From a virus (taxonomy: Duplodnaviria; Heunggongvirae; Uroviricota; Caudoviricetes): a DNA stretch of 31,123 nucleotides. Every line of letters begins with the position of its first letter. Positions within the stretch are counted from its first letter, which is position 1. The stretch lies in IMG/VR virus record IMGVR_UViG_2671181040_000014. The stretch is one strand, 5' to 3'. The notes under the pieces were generated by a model, which saw only the letters and a program-made list of their open reading frames with translations, had not been told where the DNA came from and ran no database searches. Below, piece by piece: positions 1 through 31,123 of this stretch. The translations under genes and the position numbers were made by a program.

Positions 1-405
1 ATGGATCAGGTCGTTGTTTTTCAAAAGATGTTTGAGCAAGTGAGAAAAGAGCAAAACTTCTCCTGGTTTTATTCAGAATTAAAACATCACCGTATTGCAC
101 ATTACATTTATTATCTGGCTACGGATAACATCAGAATTATTACTCACGATGACACGGTTTTGTTATTAAGAGGAACCAGGAACCTGTTAAAAGTTAGTAC
201 GACCAAGAACCCTGCTAAAATAAAAGAGGCCGCATTGCTTCATATTTGCGGAAAATCTACATTTCGGGAATACTGTTCAACACTAGCAGGCGCGGGCGTT
301 TTCCGGTGGGTTACTGATGTTAATCATAACAAACGCAGTTACTACGCCATTGATAATACGCTTTTATATATTGAAGATGTAGAAAATAATAAACCATTAA
401 TCTAG
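1..405 (+). CDS. ycgX: small hypothetical protein of the chromosomal flank (YcgX-like)
   Basis: Complete 134-aa ORF starting at base 1 in AT-rich DNA. Its position beside an IraM-like ORF and an icd 3' fragment matches the icdC-iraM-ycgX neighbourhood of E. coli K-12 as I recall it. Identity is from memory, not a search. Confidence 0.45.
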   Translation: MDQVVVFQKMFEQVRKEQNFSWFYSELKHHRIAHYIYYLATDNIRIITHDDTVLLLRGTRNLLKVSTTKNPAKIKEAALLHICGKSTFREYCSTLAGAGVFRWVTDVNHNKRSYYAIDNTLLYIEDVENNKPLI

Positions 406-614
406 CTAAAGTTGGATGCTTAAGAAATGCTTCATAATTCAGTAAGGCATTAGCATAATGGGAATAAAAGTACAGAGACTATCCCTATGGATGATAAATA
501 CTGTCCTTTTATTGCTACCCATAAATAATCACCATGCCAATACTATCAAATTGATATTTGAAATGTGATCACTTGACTTTCTATACGTTATTTTATAACG
601 GTTAATATATTTAT

Positions 615-661
615 AAAAACAACGGGTGTGCCATACGCCCGTTTCAATACTTAACGCACAT
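615..661. repeat. ~47-bp hairpin-containing element (AACGGGTGT-loop-ACGCCCGTT), near-copy of 1477-1523
   Basis: Aligns with 1477-1523 with a few substitutions. Imperfect inverted repeat with one G-T wobble; a T-run follows on the minus strand. Confidence 0.5.
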
Positions 662-1100
662 GTGTTTTGGTTTAGTCATCATCCAGTTATATGTATTTTA
701 GCCAGGAACAGGTTAAACCTTTCCTATATAACTCAAAAATTGAAACCTTATTCTCATGTCATGCTTATATTCATTATTATCGTTATATAAAAAGGCAACC
801 ATAATGTTTAGCAAATTGGCACAAAGTAGCATAAAGGCTATGTTTTAATTACAGGATGTTCAGTCATTTGAATGTATAACATTATAGCTAAACAAATCTA
901 AAACGAAGTGAATAATTTATTGTTTTCACTAAATCTCATTTTGTTTAACATCCATTGAGATTCCTTGCTTTAAATTTTGTTTTATATAAGCAATCGTTTT
1001 AATTAATTTATTTTTTGAAGGGGTAATATACTCATATGCAAAATAAAGAAATGAACATCCAAATGAACTATATTAAATACCGTGGGATAAGACATAACAA

Positions 1101-1424
1101 ATGAAGTGGATAGTAATTGACACGATAATTCAACCTTCATGCGGCATATCTTTTTCAGCCATATGGGGTAATATGAAAATGATCATCTGGTATCAATCTA
1201 CTATATTTCTCCCTCCTGGCAGTATATTTACACCGGTTAAATCTGGAATTATCCTTAAAGATAAAGAATATCCTATTACTATTTATAACATCGCACCATT
1301 CAACAAGGATTTATGGAGTCTACTCAAAAGCAGTCAAGAGTGTCCTCCAGGAGAAAGCAAAATAACAAATAAATGTTTGCATAATAGTTGCATTATAAAA
1401 ATATGCCCATATGGGCTCAAGTAA
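1101..1424 (+). CDS. iraM: anti-adaptor IraM-like protein (RssB inhibitor family)
   Basis: 107-aa ORF (MKWIVIDT...). Length and position next to the icd 3' fragment match iraM (ycgW) of E. coli K-12 as recalled. Not verifiable here. Confidence 0.5.
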
Positions 1425-1476
1425 AGGGTTTTATATAAATATGCTCGATATGCTATTAATAATACCTACATAAATA

Positions 1477-1523
1477 AAACAACGGGCGTGTTATACGCCC
1501 GTTGCAATATTAAACACATGTAG
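1477..1523. terminator. hairpin element between the convergent iraM-like ORF and the icd fragment; probable shared terminator
   Basis: Perfect 9-bp stem AACGGGCGT / ACGCCCGTT with a 5-nt loop (1485-1507). On the minus strand it lies directly after the icd stop codon and is followed by a T-rich run. Confidence 0.5.
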
Positions 1524-1526
1524 TGA

Positions 1527-1691
1527 TTACATGTTCTTGATGATCGCATCACCAAATTCTGAACATTTCAGCAGTTTAGCGCCTTCCATCAGACGTTCGA
1601 AGTCATAGGTTACAGTCTTGGCGTTGATTGCGCCTTCCATACCTTTAACAATCAGGTCTGCGGCTTCAGTCCAGCCCATATGGCGTAACAT
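1527..1691 (-). pseudogene. icdC: 3' fragment of the isocitrate dehydrogenase gene (last 54 codons plus stop)
   Basis: Minus-strand translation [54 protein letters not shown] matches the Icd C-terminus as I recall it. Homology stops abruptly at 1691/1692. Phages integrating into icd leave such a fragment. Confidence 0.85.
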
Positions 1692-2509
1692 TAGATTTAG
1701 AAAATTATTATATCCAATTGAATTAAAACAATTTTATACTTAACGAACATCTAAACTTGTTTTTTTACCTTCACCATAACTCGCTGATTTTGTATAGTTT
1801 ACGTAGCGTTTTGATAACCACTTTATGGCAAAATGGAGGTTCGCTTGAAAACTTCTGTTCTTATCCAGAAATTAATGGAAATTGACAAAACTGTACTATT
1901 CGATGCGGACGTAGTGACCGGTGAGGAATGGTGGCCAACCCCGATTTCTCGTGTTTATCACAATCCGCCACATACTTATGTAGAATTTTAAACAGGTGAA
2001 CAATCTCAAAATGAATCTGACGAGCTAAGTGTTTATAGCGAATTACAAATTTGTGCACATCGAATGATGCAAATTAGAGATTTTGTGCAATCTAACGAGG
2101 GACTGAAACCTGAAAAAATTGTTTCGGAAATAAACATTCAAATTGAACGTATTAAAAAGTGATGGCTGAAGCAATTCTGAAACACTAATTCATATTCTAT
2201 GTTCTTCATACCAATGTGGATTTAACTCCCACCCACCCACCAACCCACCAACCATGATTGGGCGGCGCAAGAAACTAATATCAATTAAAACAGCAAGTTA
2301 TCAGTCTAAACAGAACACCAACGGGATGGAGGAGAGACAAAAAATATCCAATGAAACCGTAGCGCGTCAGCATTCAAAAGCGGGGTTTCTTATTTTTACT
2401 TCACCAGTAACAAATACACTGTATCATAACTACATAAAAATGATTGTTCTGACTCAGATGAATTTCTTACTCTTGTGGAATGTCACTTAATGTTATTTAT
2501 AGGTAAACA

Positions 2510-4399
2510 ATGAAATCCGAAACGCTAACCATCCAGCAAATTTTCCAAAATCAACGACAATATCGTGTTCCATTCTATCAACGTGCCTACGTATGGACGC
2601 AACGAAACCAATGGTCAGCTTTGTTGGAGGATATCTTCGAAAAAGCACAGAGCCGACTTTCGGGAACAAAACCAACCCCTCATTTCCTCGGCGCGGTGGT
2701 GCTGGAACCTCAACTCAAAAACAGCTTGTTAGGTGTAGATACCATACATATTATTGACGGCCAGCAACGTTTAACCACTCTTCAATATATTCTGGCATCC
2801 ATTCGATTATCATTGCGTGCTACAGGCCTTTCTGAACTGGAAGGGTTAGTATTGACTTGCTTGAAAAATACAAACGAAGCAACGATGAGAAATAAAAAGG
2901 TAGAATGCTTCAAACTGTGGCCAACTTTTCGAGATCAAACTCATTTTATTCAAAGTCTTAATGTTGATAATATTGACGATCTCCGTAATGTATTTTCTGA
3001 TAGCTTCACGCAACATGGTACGTTACGTAAACATTTCAACCACCCGCCGTCACTAGAGGCATTATGGTTTTTTACTGAAGCCTTTATAAAATGGATTAAA
3101 ATAGAAAACCACTCACCACAAGAAAATGCTGTAGCACTAATTGAGGCTGTCTTGACGGATCTGAAACTGGTAAGCATATTTCTCGAAGCTGAAGATGATG
3201 CCCAAATAATTTTTGAAACATTAAATGGGCGAGGAGCGGAACTTCATGCAACGGATCTTATTCGCAACTATATCTTTATGTGCGCTGAGCATGAAAATAT
3301 TAATGCTATTGAATTATATGAAAATGAGTGGAAGATCTTTGAAGATAAATACTGGTCGGAAAAGCAACGCCGTGGACGTATTAATAAACCACGCATGGAG
3401 TGGCTTGTACATGCGACATTGCAATCAGAAAGGCAGCGTGAAATTGATCTGTCTCGCCTTTACAATGAGTATCGTGATTATGTAAGTAAGGACTTGCCTT
3501 CACAACGAGCAGATCTGCAAGTAAAGCGCCTCAAACAATATGCATCACAATATAAAGAATTGGTTGGTGGTTTTGGCACAACCCCCATCTCACTCTTTGG
3601 ACATCGCATCGCAGCCTATGATGTGACGACACTCTATCCGCTTGCTTTGTTCATTTCGATAGCTAACATCGCCGATGATGAGAAAGCAGCCATGTATAAT
3701 GATCTTGTCTCCTACGTAGTACGAAGATCCGTATGTGGCCTGACGCCAAAGAATTACAACAATGTATTTATGAATGTATTGCGACACTTGTCTAAAACGG
3801 AAATTTCCAGTGTTGAGTTACGTAATATCCTCAATAGCTTAAATGGCGAAGCCTCACGTTGGCCTGGGGACTCAGAATTTCTCAACGCTTGCATCAATGC
3901 TCCACTTTATCCTGGCAGGCTCGACGCACCGAAAATGCGCTCAATGTTAACGGAACTTGAAAGAGAACTTTGTCGCCAAGTGAAGACAGAAAAGCCTGAT
4001 GTTCCAAATCTTTCTAATCTCGATATCGATCATCTTATGCCTCAAAGTTGGTATTCCTGTTGGCCTCTCGAAAATGGTCATATGGTGACAAATTCAGATG
4101 CTACGGTAATGAACCAAATTGTTCTGTCTGGAACCGATCTTACCCCTGAACAGCTACTGGTAAGGAAACGGCAACAAGCGATAGCTACGTTGGGAAATCT
4201 AACTTTGCTTAACCTTAGCGTAAACCGTTCCGTTCAGAATGCTGTATTTCTGAAAAAACGTGATGCTCTCATCGTCCACACCAATCTACGACTGAACATA
4301 CCACTTATACTTAAGGATAAATGGGATGAGAGTGAAATACAGGAGCGAGGTAAAAAGTTGGGGGAAATTGCATTGAAAGTATGGCCAAAATACGATTAA
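2510..4399 (+). CDS. DUF262 (ParB-like, DGQQR motif) / DUF1524 (His-Me finger) fusion protein; GmrSD-family type IV restriction endonuclease candidate
   Basis: 629-aa ORF. N-terminal YQRAYVW and IIDGQQRLTTL motifs typical of DUF262; C-terminal DIDHLMPQSW and GNLTLLNLSVNRS resemble the DUF1524 HNH-like nuclease. AT-rich, beside a truncated invertase, in the slot mcrA occupies in e14. Confidence 0.75.
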   Translation: MKSETLTIQQIFQNQRQYRVPFYQRAYVWTQRNQWSALLEDIFEKAQSRLSGTKPTPHFLGAVVLEPQLKNSLLGVDTIHIIDGQQRLTTLQYILASIRLSLRATGLSELEGLVLTCLKNTNEATMRNKKVECFKLWPTFRDQTHFIQSLNVDNIDDLRNVFSDSFTQHGTLRKHFNHPPSLEALWFFTEAFIKWIKIENHSPQENAVALIEAVLTDLKLVSIFLEAEDDAQIIFETLNGRGAELHATDLIRNYIFMCAEHENINAIELYENEWKIFEDKYWSEKQRRGRINKPRMEWLVHATLQSERQREIDLSRLYNEYRDYVSKDLPSQRADLQVKRLKQYASQYKELVGGFGTTPISLFGHRIAAYDVTTLYPLALFISIANIADDEKAAMYNDLVSYVVRRSVCGLTPKNYNNVFMNVLRHLSKTEISSVELRNILNSLNGEASRWPGDSEFLNACINAPLYPGRLDAPKMRSMLTELERELCRQVKTEKPDVPNLSNLDIDHLMPQSWYSCWPLENGHMVTNSDATVMNQIVLSGTDLTPEQLLVRKRQQAIATLGNLTLLNLSVNRSVQNAVFLKKRDALIVHTNLRLNIPLILKDKWDESEIQERGKKLGEIALKVWPKYD

Positions 4400-4421
4400 T
4401 GCAATTAATAAAATGATTATA

Positions 4422-4445
4422 GCGGCCTTACATTAGTAAGGCCGC
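4422..4445. terminator. 10-bp-stem hairpin (GCGGCCTTAC-ATTA-GTAAGGCCGC) between the convergent DUF262 gene and the invertase remnant
   Basis: Perfect inverted repeat 23 bp after the DUF262 stop. No clean T-run on the plus strand; a T-rich run follows on the minus strand. Confidence 0.4.
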
Positions 4446-4499
4446 AACTCACTATTAAATCCTTTAATTTGCATCAAGAACAGCACTGTCAGCCCTAGG

Positions 4500-4624
4500 C
4501 TCTCGGACTTTGTACCGCTTATCTTGTCTTCAAAAATCAGCTCGCATCCTGCACAGTTCAACGCATTACGTTGTAGATCGATTTTCTGGTCATTTGTTGA
4601 TACGCAAACATAGCCAATAAGCAT
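4500..4624 (-). pseudogene. pin: truncated serine invertase (Pin/Gin/Hin family), N-terminal ~41 codons only
   Basis: Minus-strand translation MLIGYVCVSTNDQKIDLQRNALNCAGCELIFEDKISGTKSE matches the conserved invertase N-terminus with the catalytic-serine motif YVRVST (here YVCVST). Similarity ends near 4500 where the AT-rich cargo begins. Confidence 0.8.
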
Positions 4625-4632
4625 GGTAGCTC

Positions 4633-4704
4633 CCTCTGACAAAAGCAGGAATGATGCCATTTTCTCGTTATTTCTGCATTTTCATAAACGTTGGTTTGGG
4701 AGAA
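4633..4704. repeat. inverted repeat arm (pin leader plus pix), reverse complement of 31052-31123
   Basis: Base-by-base comparison shows an exact reverse-complement match to the last 72 bases of the window. Confidence 0.9.
4679..4704. other. pix/hix/gix-like 26-bp recombination site (12-2-12; TTTTCATAAACG-TT-GGTTTGGGAGAA)
   Basis: Imperfect inverted half-sites of the TTNTNNAAAACC type around a central TT, directly upstream of the invertase remnant. Homology with the right-hand switch starts exactly at the central dinucleotide. Confidence 0.7.
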
Positions 4705-5040
4705 TTATCTCTGGCTGGCACTGCATCGGGTGTCATTGGTCTGAATGGGTATGTAACGATTCCGTTAATTATTTCAGGTTCCCGGAGAACACTGATTATT
4801 CAGTGGGGGCAGGCGAGATTTGGTGGGTCTGGTGGTGAAGATGCCGGATATCTTAATGATTTTCCTTTTGCCTTTCCGTCAGCATGTTATGGAATGATAG
4901 TTAGTCATGTGGGGCATACACCTTCAGGCGCAGGAATCCTGTCGGCTTCTGCAATTACATCAAATCAGTTCCGCGGTTTTTCAAGCATAGCGACTGCTGC
5001 AAATGCTGTATTAGGTCGTTATATCGCTATAGGGGGTTAA
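4693..5040 (+). pseudogene. tail-fibre variable C-terminal segment (Sv) without its constant N-terminal part
   Basis: Translation from LSLAGTASGVIG to the stop is identical to the C-terminus of the 29245-29883 tail fibre. Upstream codons come from the invertase leader, so the listed start at 4651 is an artefact of reading across the pix site. Confidence 0.65.
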
Positions 5041-5041
5041 T

Positions 5042-5479
5042 ATGTTTTATAGTCCATCATTAAACATTTTTGTGAATCCTGCGCTTAAGGATGATTACAT
5101 TAATGCAAATTCATGGCCAGATGATGCTCTGGCTGTCAGTGATGATGTTTATAATGAATTTGCAATCAATACGCCCCCATATGACAAAATTCGTGTTGCA
5201 GGAAAAAATGGATTACCCACATGGGCACTAATACCTCCACCATCGCATGAAGAACTTATTCAACAGGCAGAATCAGAAAGGCAATTATTGCTTAATCAGG
5301 CCAACGAATACATGAACAGTAAACAATGGCCCGGTAAAGCCGCTATTGGTCGTCTGAAAGACGAGGAACTGGCACTATATAATTTGTGGCTGGATTACCT
5401 GGACGCACTGGAACTGGTGGATACCTCCAGTGCTCCAGATATTGAATGGCCTACACCTCCGGTAACTCAGGCCAGCTAA
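5042..5479 (+). CDS. tfa: tail fibre assembly protein (Tfa family), duplicate of 29885-30322
   Basis: 145-aa ORF starting one base after the Sv stop; identical protein to 29885-30322. Confidence 0.75.
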   Translation: MFYSPSLNIFVNPALKDDYINANSWPDDALAVSDDVYNEFAINTPPYDKIRVAGKNGLPTWALIPPPSHEELIQQAESERQLLLNQANEYMNSKQWPGKAAIGRLKDEELALYNLWLDYLDALELVDTSSAPDIEWPTPPVTQAS

Positions 5480-5542
5480 TCTCAGGAGCCGTCGAAGTGT
5501 CGACGGCTTTTACTTCTTTTTTGTAGTCCATCCAGGCGGATA
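5451..5542 (-). pseudogene. 3' fragment of the alternative tail fibre assembly gene (tfa'), about 30 codons
   Basis: Minus-strand translation ends LSAWMDYKKEVKAVDTSTAPEISWPELPEV, identical to the C-terminus of the 30294-30689 ORF. Homology ends at 5542. Confidence 0.65.
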
Positions 5543-5724
5543 ACAGCGCGAACGATACAGCCGTACCGCGATTAACAACATCAAAAAATTCTGGTCGCTG
5601 ACAGCGAAAGGCTGCATGTTCGGCAAGAACATCACCAGTCCCGCAAATCCGCGCGAGACGCAGCCGCACTTTTTCGAATCCCGATTCCCTGAGCTGTTAA
5701 AGCTGCTCGATACCGTTCATTGAG

Positions 5725-6720
5725 GTGACCGTGAGAGCACTACTGACCCCTGAAATTGCCCCGCGTATGGGGATCGTATTGTTCAGACCAGGTTCAGAGC
5801 TGATGCCCCTGTTTATGCAGGGGCGTGTCCTGCTGGAGCCTGAGCCGGAGCATTATTCATCTTTCGCCAGTGGTGCCGTTCCCGCGGCATCACAACCGCT
5901 GGCGGATGATCCTGTCGTTCGGGCCGTGTTCCGTAATGAGGCAGTGATTCGTCGTGCTGGTGGGGTGGAATGTCTTGAAAGCTGGTTACTTCGTGAAAAA
6001 GGCTGCCAGTGGCCTCATTCCGACTGGCACAGCGAGAACATGACCACAATGCGACACGCGCCGGGCGCAATCCGTCTGTGCTGGCACTGCGATAACCAGT
6101 TGCGCGATCAGTTCACGGAACGGCTGGAATCAATGGCAACGGATAACTGTGCCCGCTGGGTATTGTCTGTTGTGCGTCGGGATCTCGGTTTTGATGATAG
6201 TCACGTTGTGACAATGCCGGAACTGTGCTGGTGGCTGGTTCGTAATGACCTGGCGGATGCCTTACCGGAAAGTGCAGCCCGTAAGGCACTGAGATTACCG
6301 AAGCCTGTTGTGCCGTCTGTCACCCGGGAAAGTGACCTTGTGCCTTCGGTTCCTGCCACCAGCATCATCCAGGATAAGGCGAAAAAGGTGCTGGCGCTGA
6401 AAGTGGATCCGGAGTCGCCGGAGTCTTTTATGTTACGCCCAAAACGTCGCCGCTGGGCTAATGAAAAGTACACGCGCTGGGTTAAGACACAGCCGTGTGC
6501 ATGTTGTGGAAAGCTTGCTGATGATCCCCACCACCTGATAGGCGACGGTCAGGGGGGAATGGGTACAAAAGCGCATGACCTCTTTGTGTTGCCTTTGTGC
6601 AGAAAGCATCACGACGATCTGCATGCGGATACCGTGGCATTTGAAGAAAAGTATGGCTCCCAGTTGGAGCTGATATTTCGTTTTATCGATCGTGCGCTGG
6701 CAATTGGCGTGCTGGCGTAA
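5725..6720 (+). CDS. DUF968-like phage protein (nin-region type, YdfU-like) with a C-terminal Cys/His cluster
   Basis: 331-aa ORF; C-terminal CACCGK...DPHHL...LCRKHHDDLH motif. GTG start at 5725 is uncertain (alternatives 5731 and 5767). Sits directly upstream of the Q-like gene, as ydfU does beside quuQ in the Qin prophage as I recall it. Confidence 0.5.
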   Translation: MTVRALLTPEIAPRMGIVLFRPGSELMPLFMQGRVLLEPEPEHYSSFASGAVPAASQPLADDPVVRAVFRNEAVIRRAGGVECLESWLLREKGCQWPHSDWHSENMTTMRHAPGAIRLCWHCDNQLRDQFTERLESMATDNCARWVLSVVRRDLGFDDSHVVTMPELCWWLVRNDLADALPESAARKALRLPKPVVPSVTRESDLVPSVPATSIIQDKAKKVLALKVDPESPESFMLRPKRRRWANEKYTRWVKTQPCACCGKLADDPHHLIGDGQGGMGTKAHDLFVLPLCRKHHDDLHADTVAFEEKYGSQLELIFRFIDRALAIGVLA

Positions 6721-10809: not shown

Positions 10810-11199
10810 TCAATTATCTCCTTTAAAGGAGTCGTATTCACCCCAATCAGCAAACCCAATCGGTCTTTTAGGGGTCTCTAAGCATAAGCGTTTTTTTCGG
10901 ATTAGCAGGACATTTATTTGAGATACATGCTGAACAAGTTCTACAGGACTGCCATCCTCCAGAGTACCAATGAAAGAAATTAATGATGGATTCCAGTAGC
11001 TTATGTCTGTGAAATGAAATTCAATGTTTTTACCAAAGCTAGCTAGTTGTCCTCCTACCTCATACTCTTCTTCAAGTTCACGGTGAAAATCATTTATCCA
11101 GCATATAAGGCGTCTATGAAATTCATTTGCAAGATTGTAGTCCTTTGGAACATATGGCTGTGAGTATTTGAGGAAATCATTCATGTAGTTATTTGTCAT
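10810..11199 (-). CDS. hypothetical protein encoded antisense to the late operon (moron), function unknown
   Basis: AT-rich minus-strand ORF. Preferred start is the third ATG (11199), which has AAGGA 7 nt upstream; the longest ORF reaches 11226. No signal peptide or recognisable motif. Confidence 0.5.
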   Translation of the reverse strand: MTNNYMNDFLKYSQPYVPKDYNLANEFHRRLICWINDFHRELEEEYEVGGQLASFGKNIEFHFTDISYWNPSLISFIGTLEDGSPVELVQHVSQINVLLIRKKRLCLETPKRPIGFADWGEYDSFKGDN

Positions 11200-11297
11200 C
11201 AGGGCGTCCTTTACGAGCATAACCATTGTTACTTAACGGATTGAAACGCTATTAAATAACATGGTTTCTATCATAATTTCTATCCGGAGTTTTCCAT

Positions 11298-23651: not shown

Positions 23652-24182
23652 ATGAAAGGCTATATCACAGCAAGTGTAATTCTTGGAGCAGCGGCTATTT
23701 TTTCATCTCTCATAATCTCTGGCAACATCTCCTTTAAAGATGAACATATTATTCAGTTATCTGGAGGAGCCATAAAACTTGGTGATGTTTATAAAGAAAA
23801 TAAATTGATAAGTGCAAAGATTATTTTTCCAGATAATCAGGGTGAACAGATTCTTGTTGTCGACGGCAATCCTGAAAACTTTAAGGAGGATTTTCAGGAG
23901 AAATTAAATAAAGTAATAAAAACTTTAAATGCGTCAAAGAAAAAAGATGAAGAGAAAGTTAGCCTGGATAATTTAAGTGTTATTGAAGAGTCTAAACTAG
24001 AGCTCGTTTCTGCGGTGCGTTACTCTGCTCAGTATGTTCCTATGTTTACTCTGACGCTGGACAAAAAAGAAATTACCATGCCTAAAAATACGGTAATATT
24101 TCCATTTGCCAGCGATGAAACAGCTAAGTATTTAAATGAACAACAGCAAAAGTATAAAGATTCGTTGTTTCTGACTCGCTAA
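23652..24182 (+). CDS. hypothetical membrane-anchored or secreted protein (176 aa); moron inside the tail module
   Basis: AT-rich ORF with hydrophobic N-terminus MKGYITASVILGAAAIFSSLIISG and a Lys/Glu-rich body; followed by its own terminator. Confidence 0.55.
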   Translation: MKGYITASVILGAAAIFSSLIISGNISFKDEHIIQLSGGAIKLGDVYKENKLISAKIIFPDNQGEQILVVDGNPENFKEDFQEKLNKVIKTLNASKKKDEEKVSLDNLSVIEESKLELVSAVRYSAQYVPMFTLTLDKKEITMPKNTVIFPFASDETAKYLNEQQQKYKDSLFLTR

Positions 24183-29244: not shown

Positions 29245-29883
29245 ATGCATCGTATAGACACGAAAACCGCGCAGAAGGATAAGTTCGGCGCGGGTAAGAA
29301 CGGTTTTACCCGTGGTAACCCCCAGACCGGCACGCCTGCCACCGATCTGGATGATGACTACTTTGACATGTTGCAGGAAGAGCTCTGCAGCGTGGTGGAG
29401 GCATCCGGTGCCAGCCTGGAGAAGGGGCGGCATGACCAGCTGCTTACCGCGCTTCGTGCGCTGCTGTTAAGTCGCAAAAATCCGTTTGGCGATATCAAAT
29501 CGGACGGCACGGTGAAAACGGCTCTTCAAAACCTTGGTTTGGGAGAATTATCTCTGGCTGGCACTGCATCGGGTGTCATTGGTCTGAATGGGTATGTAAC
29601 GATTCCGTTAATTATTTCAGGTTCCCGGAGAACACTGATTATTCAGTGGGGGCAGGCGAGATTTGGTGGGTCTGGTGGTGAAGATGCCGGATATCTTAAT
29701 GATTTTCCTTTTGCCTTTCCGTCAGCATGTTATGGAATGATAGTTAGTCATGTGGGGCATACACCTTCAGGCGCAGGAATCCTGTCGGCTTCTGCAATTA
29801 CATCAAATCAGTTCCGCGGTTTTTCAAGCATAGCGACTGCTGCAAATGCTGTATTAGGTCGTTATATCGCTATAGGGGGTTAA
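29245..29883 (+). CDS. stf: tail fibre protein: constant N-terminal part fused across pixL to the Sv variable part
   Basis: 212 aa with GGAG RBS. N-terminus MHRIDTKTAQKDKFGAGKNGFTRGNPQTGTPATDLDDDYFDMLQEEL matches e14 StfP-type fibres as recalled. pixL lies inside the ORF at codons ~93-101. Confidence 0.8.
   Translation: MHRIDTKTAQKDKFGAGKNGFTRGNPQTGTPATDLDDDYFDMLQEELCSVVEASGASLEKGRHDQLLTALRALLLSRKNPFGDIKSDGTVKTALQNLGLGELSLAGTASGVIGLNGYVTIPLIISGSRRTLIIQWGQARFGGSGGEDAGYLNDFPFAFPSACYGMIVSHVGHTPSGAGILSASAITSNQFRGFSSIATAANAVLGRYIAIGG
29522..29547. other. pixL-like 26-bp recombination site (CTCTTCAAAACC-TT-GGTTTGGGAGAA) inside the tail-fibre gene
   Basis: 12-2-12 site with half-sites related to the hix/gix family; the 852-bp repeat homology begins at its central TT. 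Confidence 0.7.
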
Positions 29884-30385
29884 TATGTTTTATAGTCCAT
29901 CATTAAACATTTTTGTGAATCCTGCGCTTAAGGATGATTACATTAATGCAAATTCATGGCCAGATGATGCTCTGGCTGTCAGTGATGATGTTTATAATGA
30001 ATTTGCAATCAATACGCCCCCATATGACAAAATTCGTGTTGCAGGAAAAAATGGATTACCCACATGGGCACTAATACCTCCACCATCGCATGAAGAACTT
30101 ATTCAACAGGCAGAATCAGAAAGGCAATTATTGCTTAATCAGGCCAACGAATACATGAACAGTAAACAATGGCCCGGTAAAGCCGCTATTGGTCGTCTGA
30201 AAGACGAGGAACTGGCACTATATAATTTGTGGCTGGATTACCTGGACGCACTGGAACTGGTGGATACCTCCAGTGCTCCAGATATTGAATGGCCTACACC
30301 TCCGGTAACTCAGGCCAGCTAATCTCAGGAGCCGTCGAAGTGTCGACGGCTTTTACTTCTTTTTTGTAGTCCATCCAGGCGGATA
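29534..30385. repeat. 852-bp direct repeat, copy 2, matching 4691-5542
   Basis: See copy 1. Confidence 0.9.
29885..30322 (+). CDS. tfa: tail fibre assembly protein (Tfa family)
   Basis: 145-aa ORF starting 2 nt after the fibre stop; C-terminus converges tail to tail with the inverted tfa'. Confidence 0.8.
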   Translation: MFYSPSLNIFVNPALKDDYINANSWPDDALAVSDDVYNEFAINTPPYDKIRVAGKNGLPTWALIPPPSHEELIQQAESERQLLLNQANEYMNSKQWPGKAAIGRLKDEELALYNLWLDYLDALELVDTSSAPDIEWPTPPVTQAS

Positions 30386-30689
30386 GTTTTTCTTTATCTG
30401 TACTGCTGATATCACCAAGCATTAATTCCACTCGCCAGTCAGCTGTGACATTATCGGCATGAGCAAGTAACTGCATTCGCTGATTTTCAGCACGTGCGAC
30501 ATAATCAATCGCCGGAGATTTCAGTACCGGTAAACCATTTTCATCTGACGTGATTAATTTACCCCCTTCCTGCTGTCCGGCAATTAATTCATTGTATAAG
30601 TCTGTACTTATCTCAACAATGTCAGCAGGCATGTCGCTGTTTATACCATCAAAGAAAAAACCATTAGTCGATTTTGAGAAATAAATCAT
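30294..30689 (-). CDS. alternative tail fibre assembly protein (tfa') in the inverted cassette
   Basis: Minus-strand ORF from the ATG at 30689 (MIYFSKSTNGFFFDG...). Its last 29 codons overlap the plus-strand tfa 3' end and share its C-terminal motif. Confidence 0.75.
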   Translation of the reverse strand: MIYFSKSTNGFFFDGINSDMPADIVEISTDLYNELIAGQQEGGKLITSDENGLPVLKSPAIDYVARAENQRMQLLAHADNVTADWRVELMLGDISSTDKEKLSAWMDYKKEVKAVDTSTAPEISWPELPEV

Positions 30690-30697
30690 AGATATAC

Positions 30698-31105
30698 CTA
30701 TACACCGATTGCTACCCAAAAACAGGACCTTTCATATTTGACAATTTCTCCCTGAGATATACCGCCAACAATTATATAGAACTGTGATTTGGTGATATCA
30801 GAACAGTTCGCAATGCCCATTGCAGATATACCAGCCAACGACGTTGTATGTGGCACAGCCAACAGCGCAAGTGAACGATTTGGGAATGTTACCGGGTAAG
30901 TCACCGTATAGTTTGATGCTCCACTGACAATACCCCACTGAATAATCAGACCTGAAGGGAGTTTTTGAAAACCCGTTGATGAAAGTGAACTGGCAAACGC
31001 CGCCATATCCGGAATTTGGTTTTGCCCGTTACCTACATTCCGTTTTGCCGCTTCTCCCAAACCAACGTTTATGAAAATGCAGAAATAACGAGAAAATGGC
31101 ATCAT
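30698..31105 (-). CDS. alternative tail-fibre C-terminal segment (Sv') in the inverted cassette; the apparent N-terminus crosses pixR
   Basis: Minus-strand ORF whose first 18 codons (MMPFSRYFCIFINVGLGE) lie beyond pixR in the invertase leader, so it is a cassette awaiting inversion rather than an independent gene. C-terminus resembles Sv. Confidence 0.6.
   Translation of the reverse strand: MMPFSRYFCIFINVGLGEAAKRNVGNGQNQIPDMAAFASSLSSTGFQKLPSGLIIQWGIVSGASNYTVTYPVTFPNRSLALLAVPHTTSLAGISAMGIANCSDITKSQFYIIVGGISQGEIVKYERSCFWVAIGV
31052..31077. other. pixR-like 26-bp recombination site (TTCTCCCAAACC-AA-CGTTTATGAAAA), inverted relative to pixL
   Basis: Reverse complement of the 4679-4704 site; shares the GGTTTGGGAGAA half-site with pixL in inverted orientation. 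Confidence 0.7.
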
Positions 31106-31123
31106 TCCTGCTTTTGTCAGAGG
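31052..31123. repeat. inverted repeat arm, reverse complement of 4633-4704; continues beyond the window
   Basis: Exact reverse-complement match to 4633-4704. By symmetry an invertase start codon would lie about 9 bp past the window end. Confidence 0.9.

Follow-up and report, generated by a model that had tools for sequence, protein, structure and literature searches.

The stretch of DNA analyzed here (hereafter, the window; 31,123 nt) is an Escherichia coli e14-family prophage at the icd site. It corresponds to positions 544200–575322 of contig CYFW01000002.1 (575,324 bp) in the short-read draft assembly GCA_001283465.1, and the gene order of the contig is the same as that of the window. Positions 1–2400 (plus strand) are host sequence flanking the e14 integration site on its attR side, are collinear with the complete genomes EC28 and 22-250, and hold ycgX (1–405), ymgL, ymgK, iraM (1101–1424), and, on the minus strand, a remnant of icdC (about 1527–1694), in a gene order identical to that of K-12. 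The locus resembles the K-12 e14 P segment (pinE, stfP/tfaP/tfaE/stfE) in its icd site, its icdC remnant, and its flanking iraM, ymgK, ymgL, and ycgX. The last prophage gene belongs to the DUF262/GmrSD family (2510–4399, plus strand; 629 aa; Pfam GmrSD_N and GmrSD_C), is annotated as DUF262 in EC28 and 22-250, and occupies the place of mcrA in K-12 e14. This type IV restriction-like gene looks like a defence-cargo swap with mcrA at the prophage end.

Beyond the DUF262/GmrSD gene lie a truncated pin invertase pseudogene on the minus strand (4433–4624; a 63-aa ORF of 192 nt), and then a stretch (4705–5542, plus strand; the left copy) that is 100% identical to 29548–30385 and contains the coding end of Sv (to 5040), U (5042–5479), and the 3′ end of U′ (5451–5542, minus strand). 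Following a single base at 5543, the 3′ 180 nt of a KilA-N gene (5544–5723, plus strand) mark the start of a second contig; the gene lacks its upstream 618 nt, and the fragment is collinear with the KilA-N coding sequence of 22-250 (L002, 33247–34044). The e14-family myovirus late region (5725–29244, plus strand; genes named by Pfam labels) is 99.98% identical to that of 22-250 in reverse orientation and includes genes for DUF968, Q, holins, endolysin, HNH, terminase, portal, protease, capsid, sheath, tube, tape measure, baseplate, and ymfQ; the tail and baseplate genes are Mu-like, and ymfQ is followed by the tail-fibre switch. The holin variant of this prophage is widespread (3,634 blocks). 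A DUF6173 gene between the lysis and HNH/terminase genes (10810–11226, minus strand) is conserved in related prophages and in prophage remnants, and a 176-aa hypothetical gene between the tape measure and DNA circularisation protein genes (23652–24182), which may be a moron, is present in 22-250 and absent at the same place in EC28.

In switches of the Din family, strand exchange by a serine invertase takes place at the central dinucleotides of two 26-bp sites in inverted orientation, and inversion swaps the tail-fibre C-terminus fused to a constant part (Sc), Sv or Sv′, together with its chaperone, U or U′. At the right end of the window, the tail-fibre gene is in state 2 (29245–29883, plus strand), with Sc fused to Sv to give a 212-aa product with a Gp53-like_C domain; the alternative Sc–Sv′ fusion (218 aa, also Gp53-like_C) is found in EC28, 22-245, and a gut-metagenome contig (L015). 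The invertible segment (29548–31051; 1504 nt between inner site edges) is the block that is inverted exactly between 22-245 and 22-250, and it carries Sv, U (29885–30322), U′ (30294–30689, minus strand), and Sv′ (from 30698 to the site, minus strand). The chaperones U and U′ are Caudo_TAP proteins, each paired with its own tail-fibre C-terminus on the constant Sc. This layout (ymfQ, Sc–Sv, U, U′ and Sv′ on the minus strand, then pin) is that of K-12 e14. Unlike the cryptic K-12 element, however, the present prophage is full-length, with head, tail, and lysis genes; its 1.5-kb segment carries different Sv/U cassettes (Gp53-like_C), it has DUF262/GmrSD in place of mcrA, and its invertase gene is reduced to 45 homologous codons.

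Repeats and crossover sites

Comparison of the window with itself revealed a 72-nt inverted repeat, in which 4633–4704 is the perfect reverse complement of 31052–31123, and an 852-nt direct repeat, in which 4691–5542 is 100% identical to 29534–30385 and is limited by mismatches at 4690/29533 and 5543/30386. Chance origin is excluded for repeats of this length. An earlier reading of the window (hereafter, the sequence-only reading) had given the coordinates of both repeats exactly, and had interpreted them as a second, frozen copy of the tail-fibre switch that preserves the flipped state beside a truncated invertase gene, with the crossover exactly at the centre of a recombination site.

Three pix sites are associated with the repeats. 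Site s1 (4679–4704; TTTTCATAAACG TT GGTTTGGGAGAA) is the pin-proximal site at a state-1 junction, and is composed of an outer half-site from the pin flank, the core TT, and an inner half-site joined to Sv; the same pin–s1–Sv junction occurs in 22-245, EC28, and the gut-metagenome contig. Site s2 (29522–29547; CTCTTCAAAACC TT GGTTTGGGAGAA), where Sc is fused to Sv, lies within the tail-fibre gene. Site s3 (31052–31077) is the reverse complement of s1, and beyond it 46 nt of pin upstream sequence extend to 31123. The two 26-bp imperfect palindromes s2 and s3 are in inverted orientation with the segment between them, and, read from outside to inside, the central dinucleotide is TT both in s2 and in the reverse complement of s3. 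In K-12 e14, the pix sites are CTCTCGAAAACC TT GGTTTGGGAGAA (the stfP site), from which s2 differs at 2 nt, and TTCTCCCAAACC AA CGTTTATGAAAA (the pinE-proximal site), to which s3 is identical. The description of the sites as 12-2-12 sites of the Pin/Hin type was therefore borne out by s3, which is a K-12 e14 pix site, and by s2 with its two differences. Two inverted 26-bp 12-2-12 sites with matching central dinucleotides are also what the Din switches Hin/hix, Gin/gix of Mu, Cin/cix of P1, and Pin/pix have in common.

The position of the exchange is less sharply defined than had been proposed. The direct identity does begin at the first T of the central TT. Because the inner half-site GGTTTGGGAGAA is the same in s1, s2, and s3, however, the direct and the inverted identities overlap by 14 nt (4691–4704), and the exchange point can be located only to this interval; the central TT is consistent with the data without being pinned by them.

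A scaffold gap and a contig end

We compared 14,399 nt of the window with the public record of CYFW01000002.1, and 14,398 positions were equal. The sole difference was window position 5543, which is N in the record and A in the window. Position 5543 is thus a scaffold gap of one base, and the end of the left copy (5542) adjoins it. The ambiguity code was apparently replaced by A during preparation of the window, which masked the gap from the sequence-only reading. Since the public record has N at this position, the 5542|5543 “junction” is a gap between two contigs, not sequenced DNA, and CYFW01000002.1 consists of two pieces joined over a single N. The first piece (Y, up to 5542) comprises the host flank, DUF262, the truncated pin gene, a pix site, and 838 nt from the invertible segment as it reads in state 1. 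The second piece (X, from 5544 to the contig end) comprises the late region, Sc, and the whole switch in state 2, and ends 74 nt into the pin flank. We infer that no reads span 5542|5544.

The other end of the inverted repeat is likewise set by the data. CYFW01000002.1 stops 2 nt beyond the window and the inverted identity persists there, so that the final 74 nt of the contig are the reverse complement of 4631–4704; the repeat in the window is cut by the end of the data at 31123, and its true extent in the source contig is 74 nt. A terminal overlap of 74 nt equals the k−1 expected where a contig of a k = 75 de Bruijn assembly meets a fork.

The two sides of the join share only 1 nt of microhomology, and the KilA-N and U′ genes are cut there at arbitrary points. 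Exact searches for the 5542|5543 junction with a 42-mer and a 26-mer gave no match in the genome, viral, and metagenome contig collections, although these searches carry no information, given that the A in the window stands for an N in the public record; a record look-up of the 72-aa ORF spanning the junction found none. In addition, we searched 5,426 complete E. coli genomes for a place covering at least 80% of window 3900–6300, which spans 5542|5543, and the adjacency was present in none of them (0/5,426).

Two ways of generating the join were considered and rejected. A de Bruijn chimera formed through a shared k-mer is at odds with the single shared nucleotide, and recombination by Pin at a pseudo-site in KilA-N is at odds with the switch-side breakpoint, which falls in mid-segment (in U′) and not at a pix site.

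Comparison with complete genomes

In EC28, 22-250, 22-245, and the gut-metagenome contig, there is a single switch and the late genes run opposite to ycgX. The window is anomalous: its late genes share the direction of ycgX, the pin flank is continued by half of the segment, and a complete switch recurs at the other end of the window. When the end of piece X was laid on 4631–4704 in reverse orientation, the arrangement of the complete genomes was rebuilt: the reconstruction (window 1–4704 followed by the reverse complement of 5544–31051; 30,212 nt) was collinear with 22-250 with 5 mismatches and no gaps. Window 1–5542 differed from the sister strain 22-245 by 1 mismatch, and beyond the equivalent of 5542, the sequence of 22-245 continued exactly as the right copy does after 30385. 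A model with one prophage and one switch therefore explains every base of the window; 4705–5542 alone is surplus, and it repeats the segment as it reads in the opposite orientation.

The two genomes that match the two states, 22-245 and 22-250, have a common source and the same coordinates. They are near-identical: the only differences across 36 kb are one SNP and an exact 1504-nt inversion, the symmetry of which reaches 1532 nt, up to and including the central dinucleotides. The tail-fibre switch thus flips in nature, and the assignment of the left copy to the flipped state and of the right copy to the other state holds, as alternative states of a single locus in 22-245 and 22-250. Moreover, the source assembly has contiguous sequence for both the state-1 junction (pin–s1–Sv) and the state-2 junction (Sv′–s3–pin flank), so the sequenced culture was probably mixed, with each of the two orientations apparently represented.

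Probable origin of the apparent second copy

Taken together, the window very probably contains one e14-family prophage at icd with one Pin/pix switch, which is shown twice through short-read draft assembly and scaffolding; there is one truncated pin gene in the prophage. What the sequence-only reading had described correctly are the sites, the two states, and the truncated invertase, whereas its second frozen copy in the same molecule did not stand. The right boundary of that copy is an N scaffold gap without sequenced adjacency. It has no flanks of its own: on its left are the canonical pin, DUF262, and icdC, and the right copy runs 74 nt into this same flank. The left copy corresponds to the normal prophage end on the pin side, beside the normal host flank (DUF262, icdC, iraM, ymgL, ycgX), and was in effect produced by assembly chimerism.

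An alternative is that the scaffold join is real, i.e., that in the isolate or a subpopulation the pin-proximal half-switch is fused in inverted orientation to mid-KilA-N by a fold-back, by an inverted duplication, or by inverting 25.6 kb of the late region, which would make the left copy a true immobilised half-switch. Any join by a scaffolder does presuppose some read pairs (5 or more in a published pipeline; PMC5320598), 1 nt of microhomology would suit illegitimate recombination, and inverted pix sites 26 kb apart are compatible with a further large inversion. However, the adjacency is an N and not sequence, and the layout was found neither in the 5,426 complete genomes nor in the contig collections (where the exact queries had A at 5543). 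A single molecule would also need the single-copy host flank twice, as the right end enters the same pin flank, unless the population was mixed, and the invertase could not have made a join whose breakpoint is off the pix site. We therefore consider a real join very unlikely, and the same low probability applies to its form as a minority structural variant, in which a fold-back or inverted segment–KilA-N junction is backed by a few read pairs. If such a variant were true, inversion-prone prophage ends would seed larger rearrangements of the late region.

The simplest of these forms, an inversion of 25.6 kb between 5542 and KilA-N, was rejected: it predicts Sc–site–Sv′–U′ joined to KilA-N at the right end, where an intact state-2 switch followed by the pin flank was observed. 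Also set aside was a double lysogen, whether tandem or inverted, carrying a deletion, because it needs a second host flank and has support from 0 genomes.

It is also conceivable that the 838 nt after s1 come from a second locus, a frozen remnant with truncated pin, pix site, Sv, and U whose reads were merged onto the icd flank, the pin and site sequences being the same at both loci. Such remnants exist in E. coli (L005, L007, L010, and L013), and a break in an independent assembly, described below, hints at another pin-like sequence in the source strain. Against this, these remnants are only 92.5% identical across DUF262–pin and their different Sv/U sequences mismatch 4705–5542, whereas the left and right copies are 100% identical, and the left one exactly matches the icd locus in state 1 of 22-245, EC28, and the gut-metagenome contig. 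The DUF262 variant of the window (L362) was found only in the source strain, its carriers being CYFW01000002.1 and the Logan assembly of run ERR175727, and within GCA_001283465.1 a single contig carries it, which again argues against a second locus. We regard this origin as very unlikely, and retain the reading of one switch shown twice.

The remnants themselves lie near yejM/ndpA/rplY and consist of a lysis cassette, DUF6173, U, Sv, and DUF262 (the last three on the minus strand) beside an IS3-family transposase gene (rve domain); the region from terminase to baseplate is deleted. They occupy about 11355–15474 in L005, L010, and L013, about 14062–18181 in L007, and about 11355–14601 in L008. 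In L005, L007, L010, and L013, one Sv and one chaperone gene are kept, and these are truly immobilised half-switches; L007 has an additional IS66 insertion. L008 has a second chaperone gene in the opposite orientation, a 42-aa resolvase fragment, and a DUF262 gene cut by the insertion.

As to how one switch came to be shown twice, the following course is probable. In a culture with both orientations, the assembly graph would fork at the pin-proximal site, and a Velvet-type contig with k = 75 would then end with an overlap of k−1 = 74 nt. A scaffolder would make a false join, and a gap filler would extend the pin-flank contig with minority-state reads into Sv–U until one N was left. A published high-throughput pipeline combines Velvet, with k set to 66–90% of the read length, SSPACE, with joins accepted on as few as 5 read pairs and N gaps inserted, and GapFiller, which is given only reads not mapped as proper pairs, and its authors warn that joins “can lead to false joins” (PMC5320598). 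Minority-state reads are non-proper-pair reads, and could thus be the material with which the gap filler extended the pin flank. From the 74-nt overlap and the single N, we infer that the accession was made with this Velvet/SSPACE/GapFiller pipeline; a text search of the literature for run ERR175727 gave no match. A contig end of k−1, a single N at the join, and duplication of a single-copy segment are what draft-assembly artefacts at phase-variable inversions look like. Unlike an obvious scaffolder error, however, the chosen order and orientation put the KilA-N end beside the pin flank. Two points do speak against an artefact: read pairs from the two states would not obviously link the KilA-N end of X to Y, and if both states were abundant, a fork would be expected at s2 too, yet X is unbroken through s2.

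The truncated invertase gene

The gene next to the switch had been read as a truncated invertase, and this proved correct. In blastn against K-12 pinE, homology of the pin stump covers codons 1–45 only (down to 4489) and then stops, with 89% identity over 191 nt (55 upstream nt and 45 codons). Within the 63 aa encoded, an Arg is replaced by Cys (YVCVST, as opposed to YVRVST in pinE). RefSeq labels the stump in EC28 and 22-250 as “recombinase family protein, incomplete, missing C-terminus.” We looked next to the switch for a functional serine invertase gene (about 185–190 aa, with the catalytic Ser and the YxRVST Arg) and found the 63-aa ORF only. The pin stump has 45 codons left, yet the segment inverts between the near-identical 22-245 and 22-250.

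With the local pin dead, flipping is probably the work of an invertase that is encoded by another prophage and acts in trans. Din invertases can act in trans on one another’s segments. Unlike Din switches generally, the present switch has no functional invertase in cis, and it can be placed in the Din family only as a substrate served in trans. Each of 22-245 and 22-250 has a second pin-like place, and EC28 has only one in all. As for the source strain, the Logan k = 31 assembly of ERR175727 (contig ERR175727_88, L004) breaks at window 4532, inside the pin stump and not at the pix site, and 4532 is the first 30-mer after 4502, where pinE and the stump differ. The location of this break suggests a second pin-family (pinE-like) gene in the source strain. 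Din-family switches have their Fis-dependent recombinational enhancer within the 5′ end of the invertase gene. The pin stump keeps the first 135 coding nt, with 89% identity to pinE, and this 5′ part may have been kept because inversion in trans needs it. Inversion in trans has a precedent in PinQ of prophage Qin, which is reported to invert the e14 P segment (PMC12529663).

Implications

The biology underlying the window is already known, and the frozen second copy is no real genome feature. The case is a caution: inversion in a mixed culture, followed by a de Bruijn assembler, a scaffolder, and a gap filler, can yield a contig that seems to hold two switches in opposite states, and replacing the N by a base hides the only visible sign of the join. 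As for the prophage itself, both orientations of its tail-fibre segment occur in near-identical isolates and apparently also within one culture. An e14-type prophage that has 45 invertase codons and a segment found in both orientations fits service in trans, comparable to the action of PinQ on e14 (PMC12529663).
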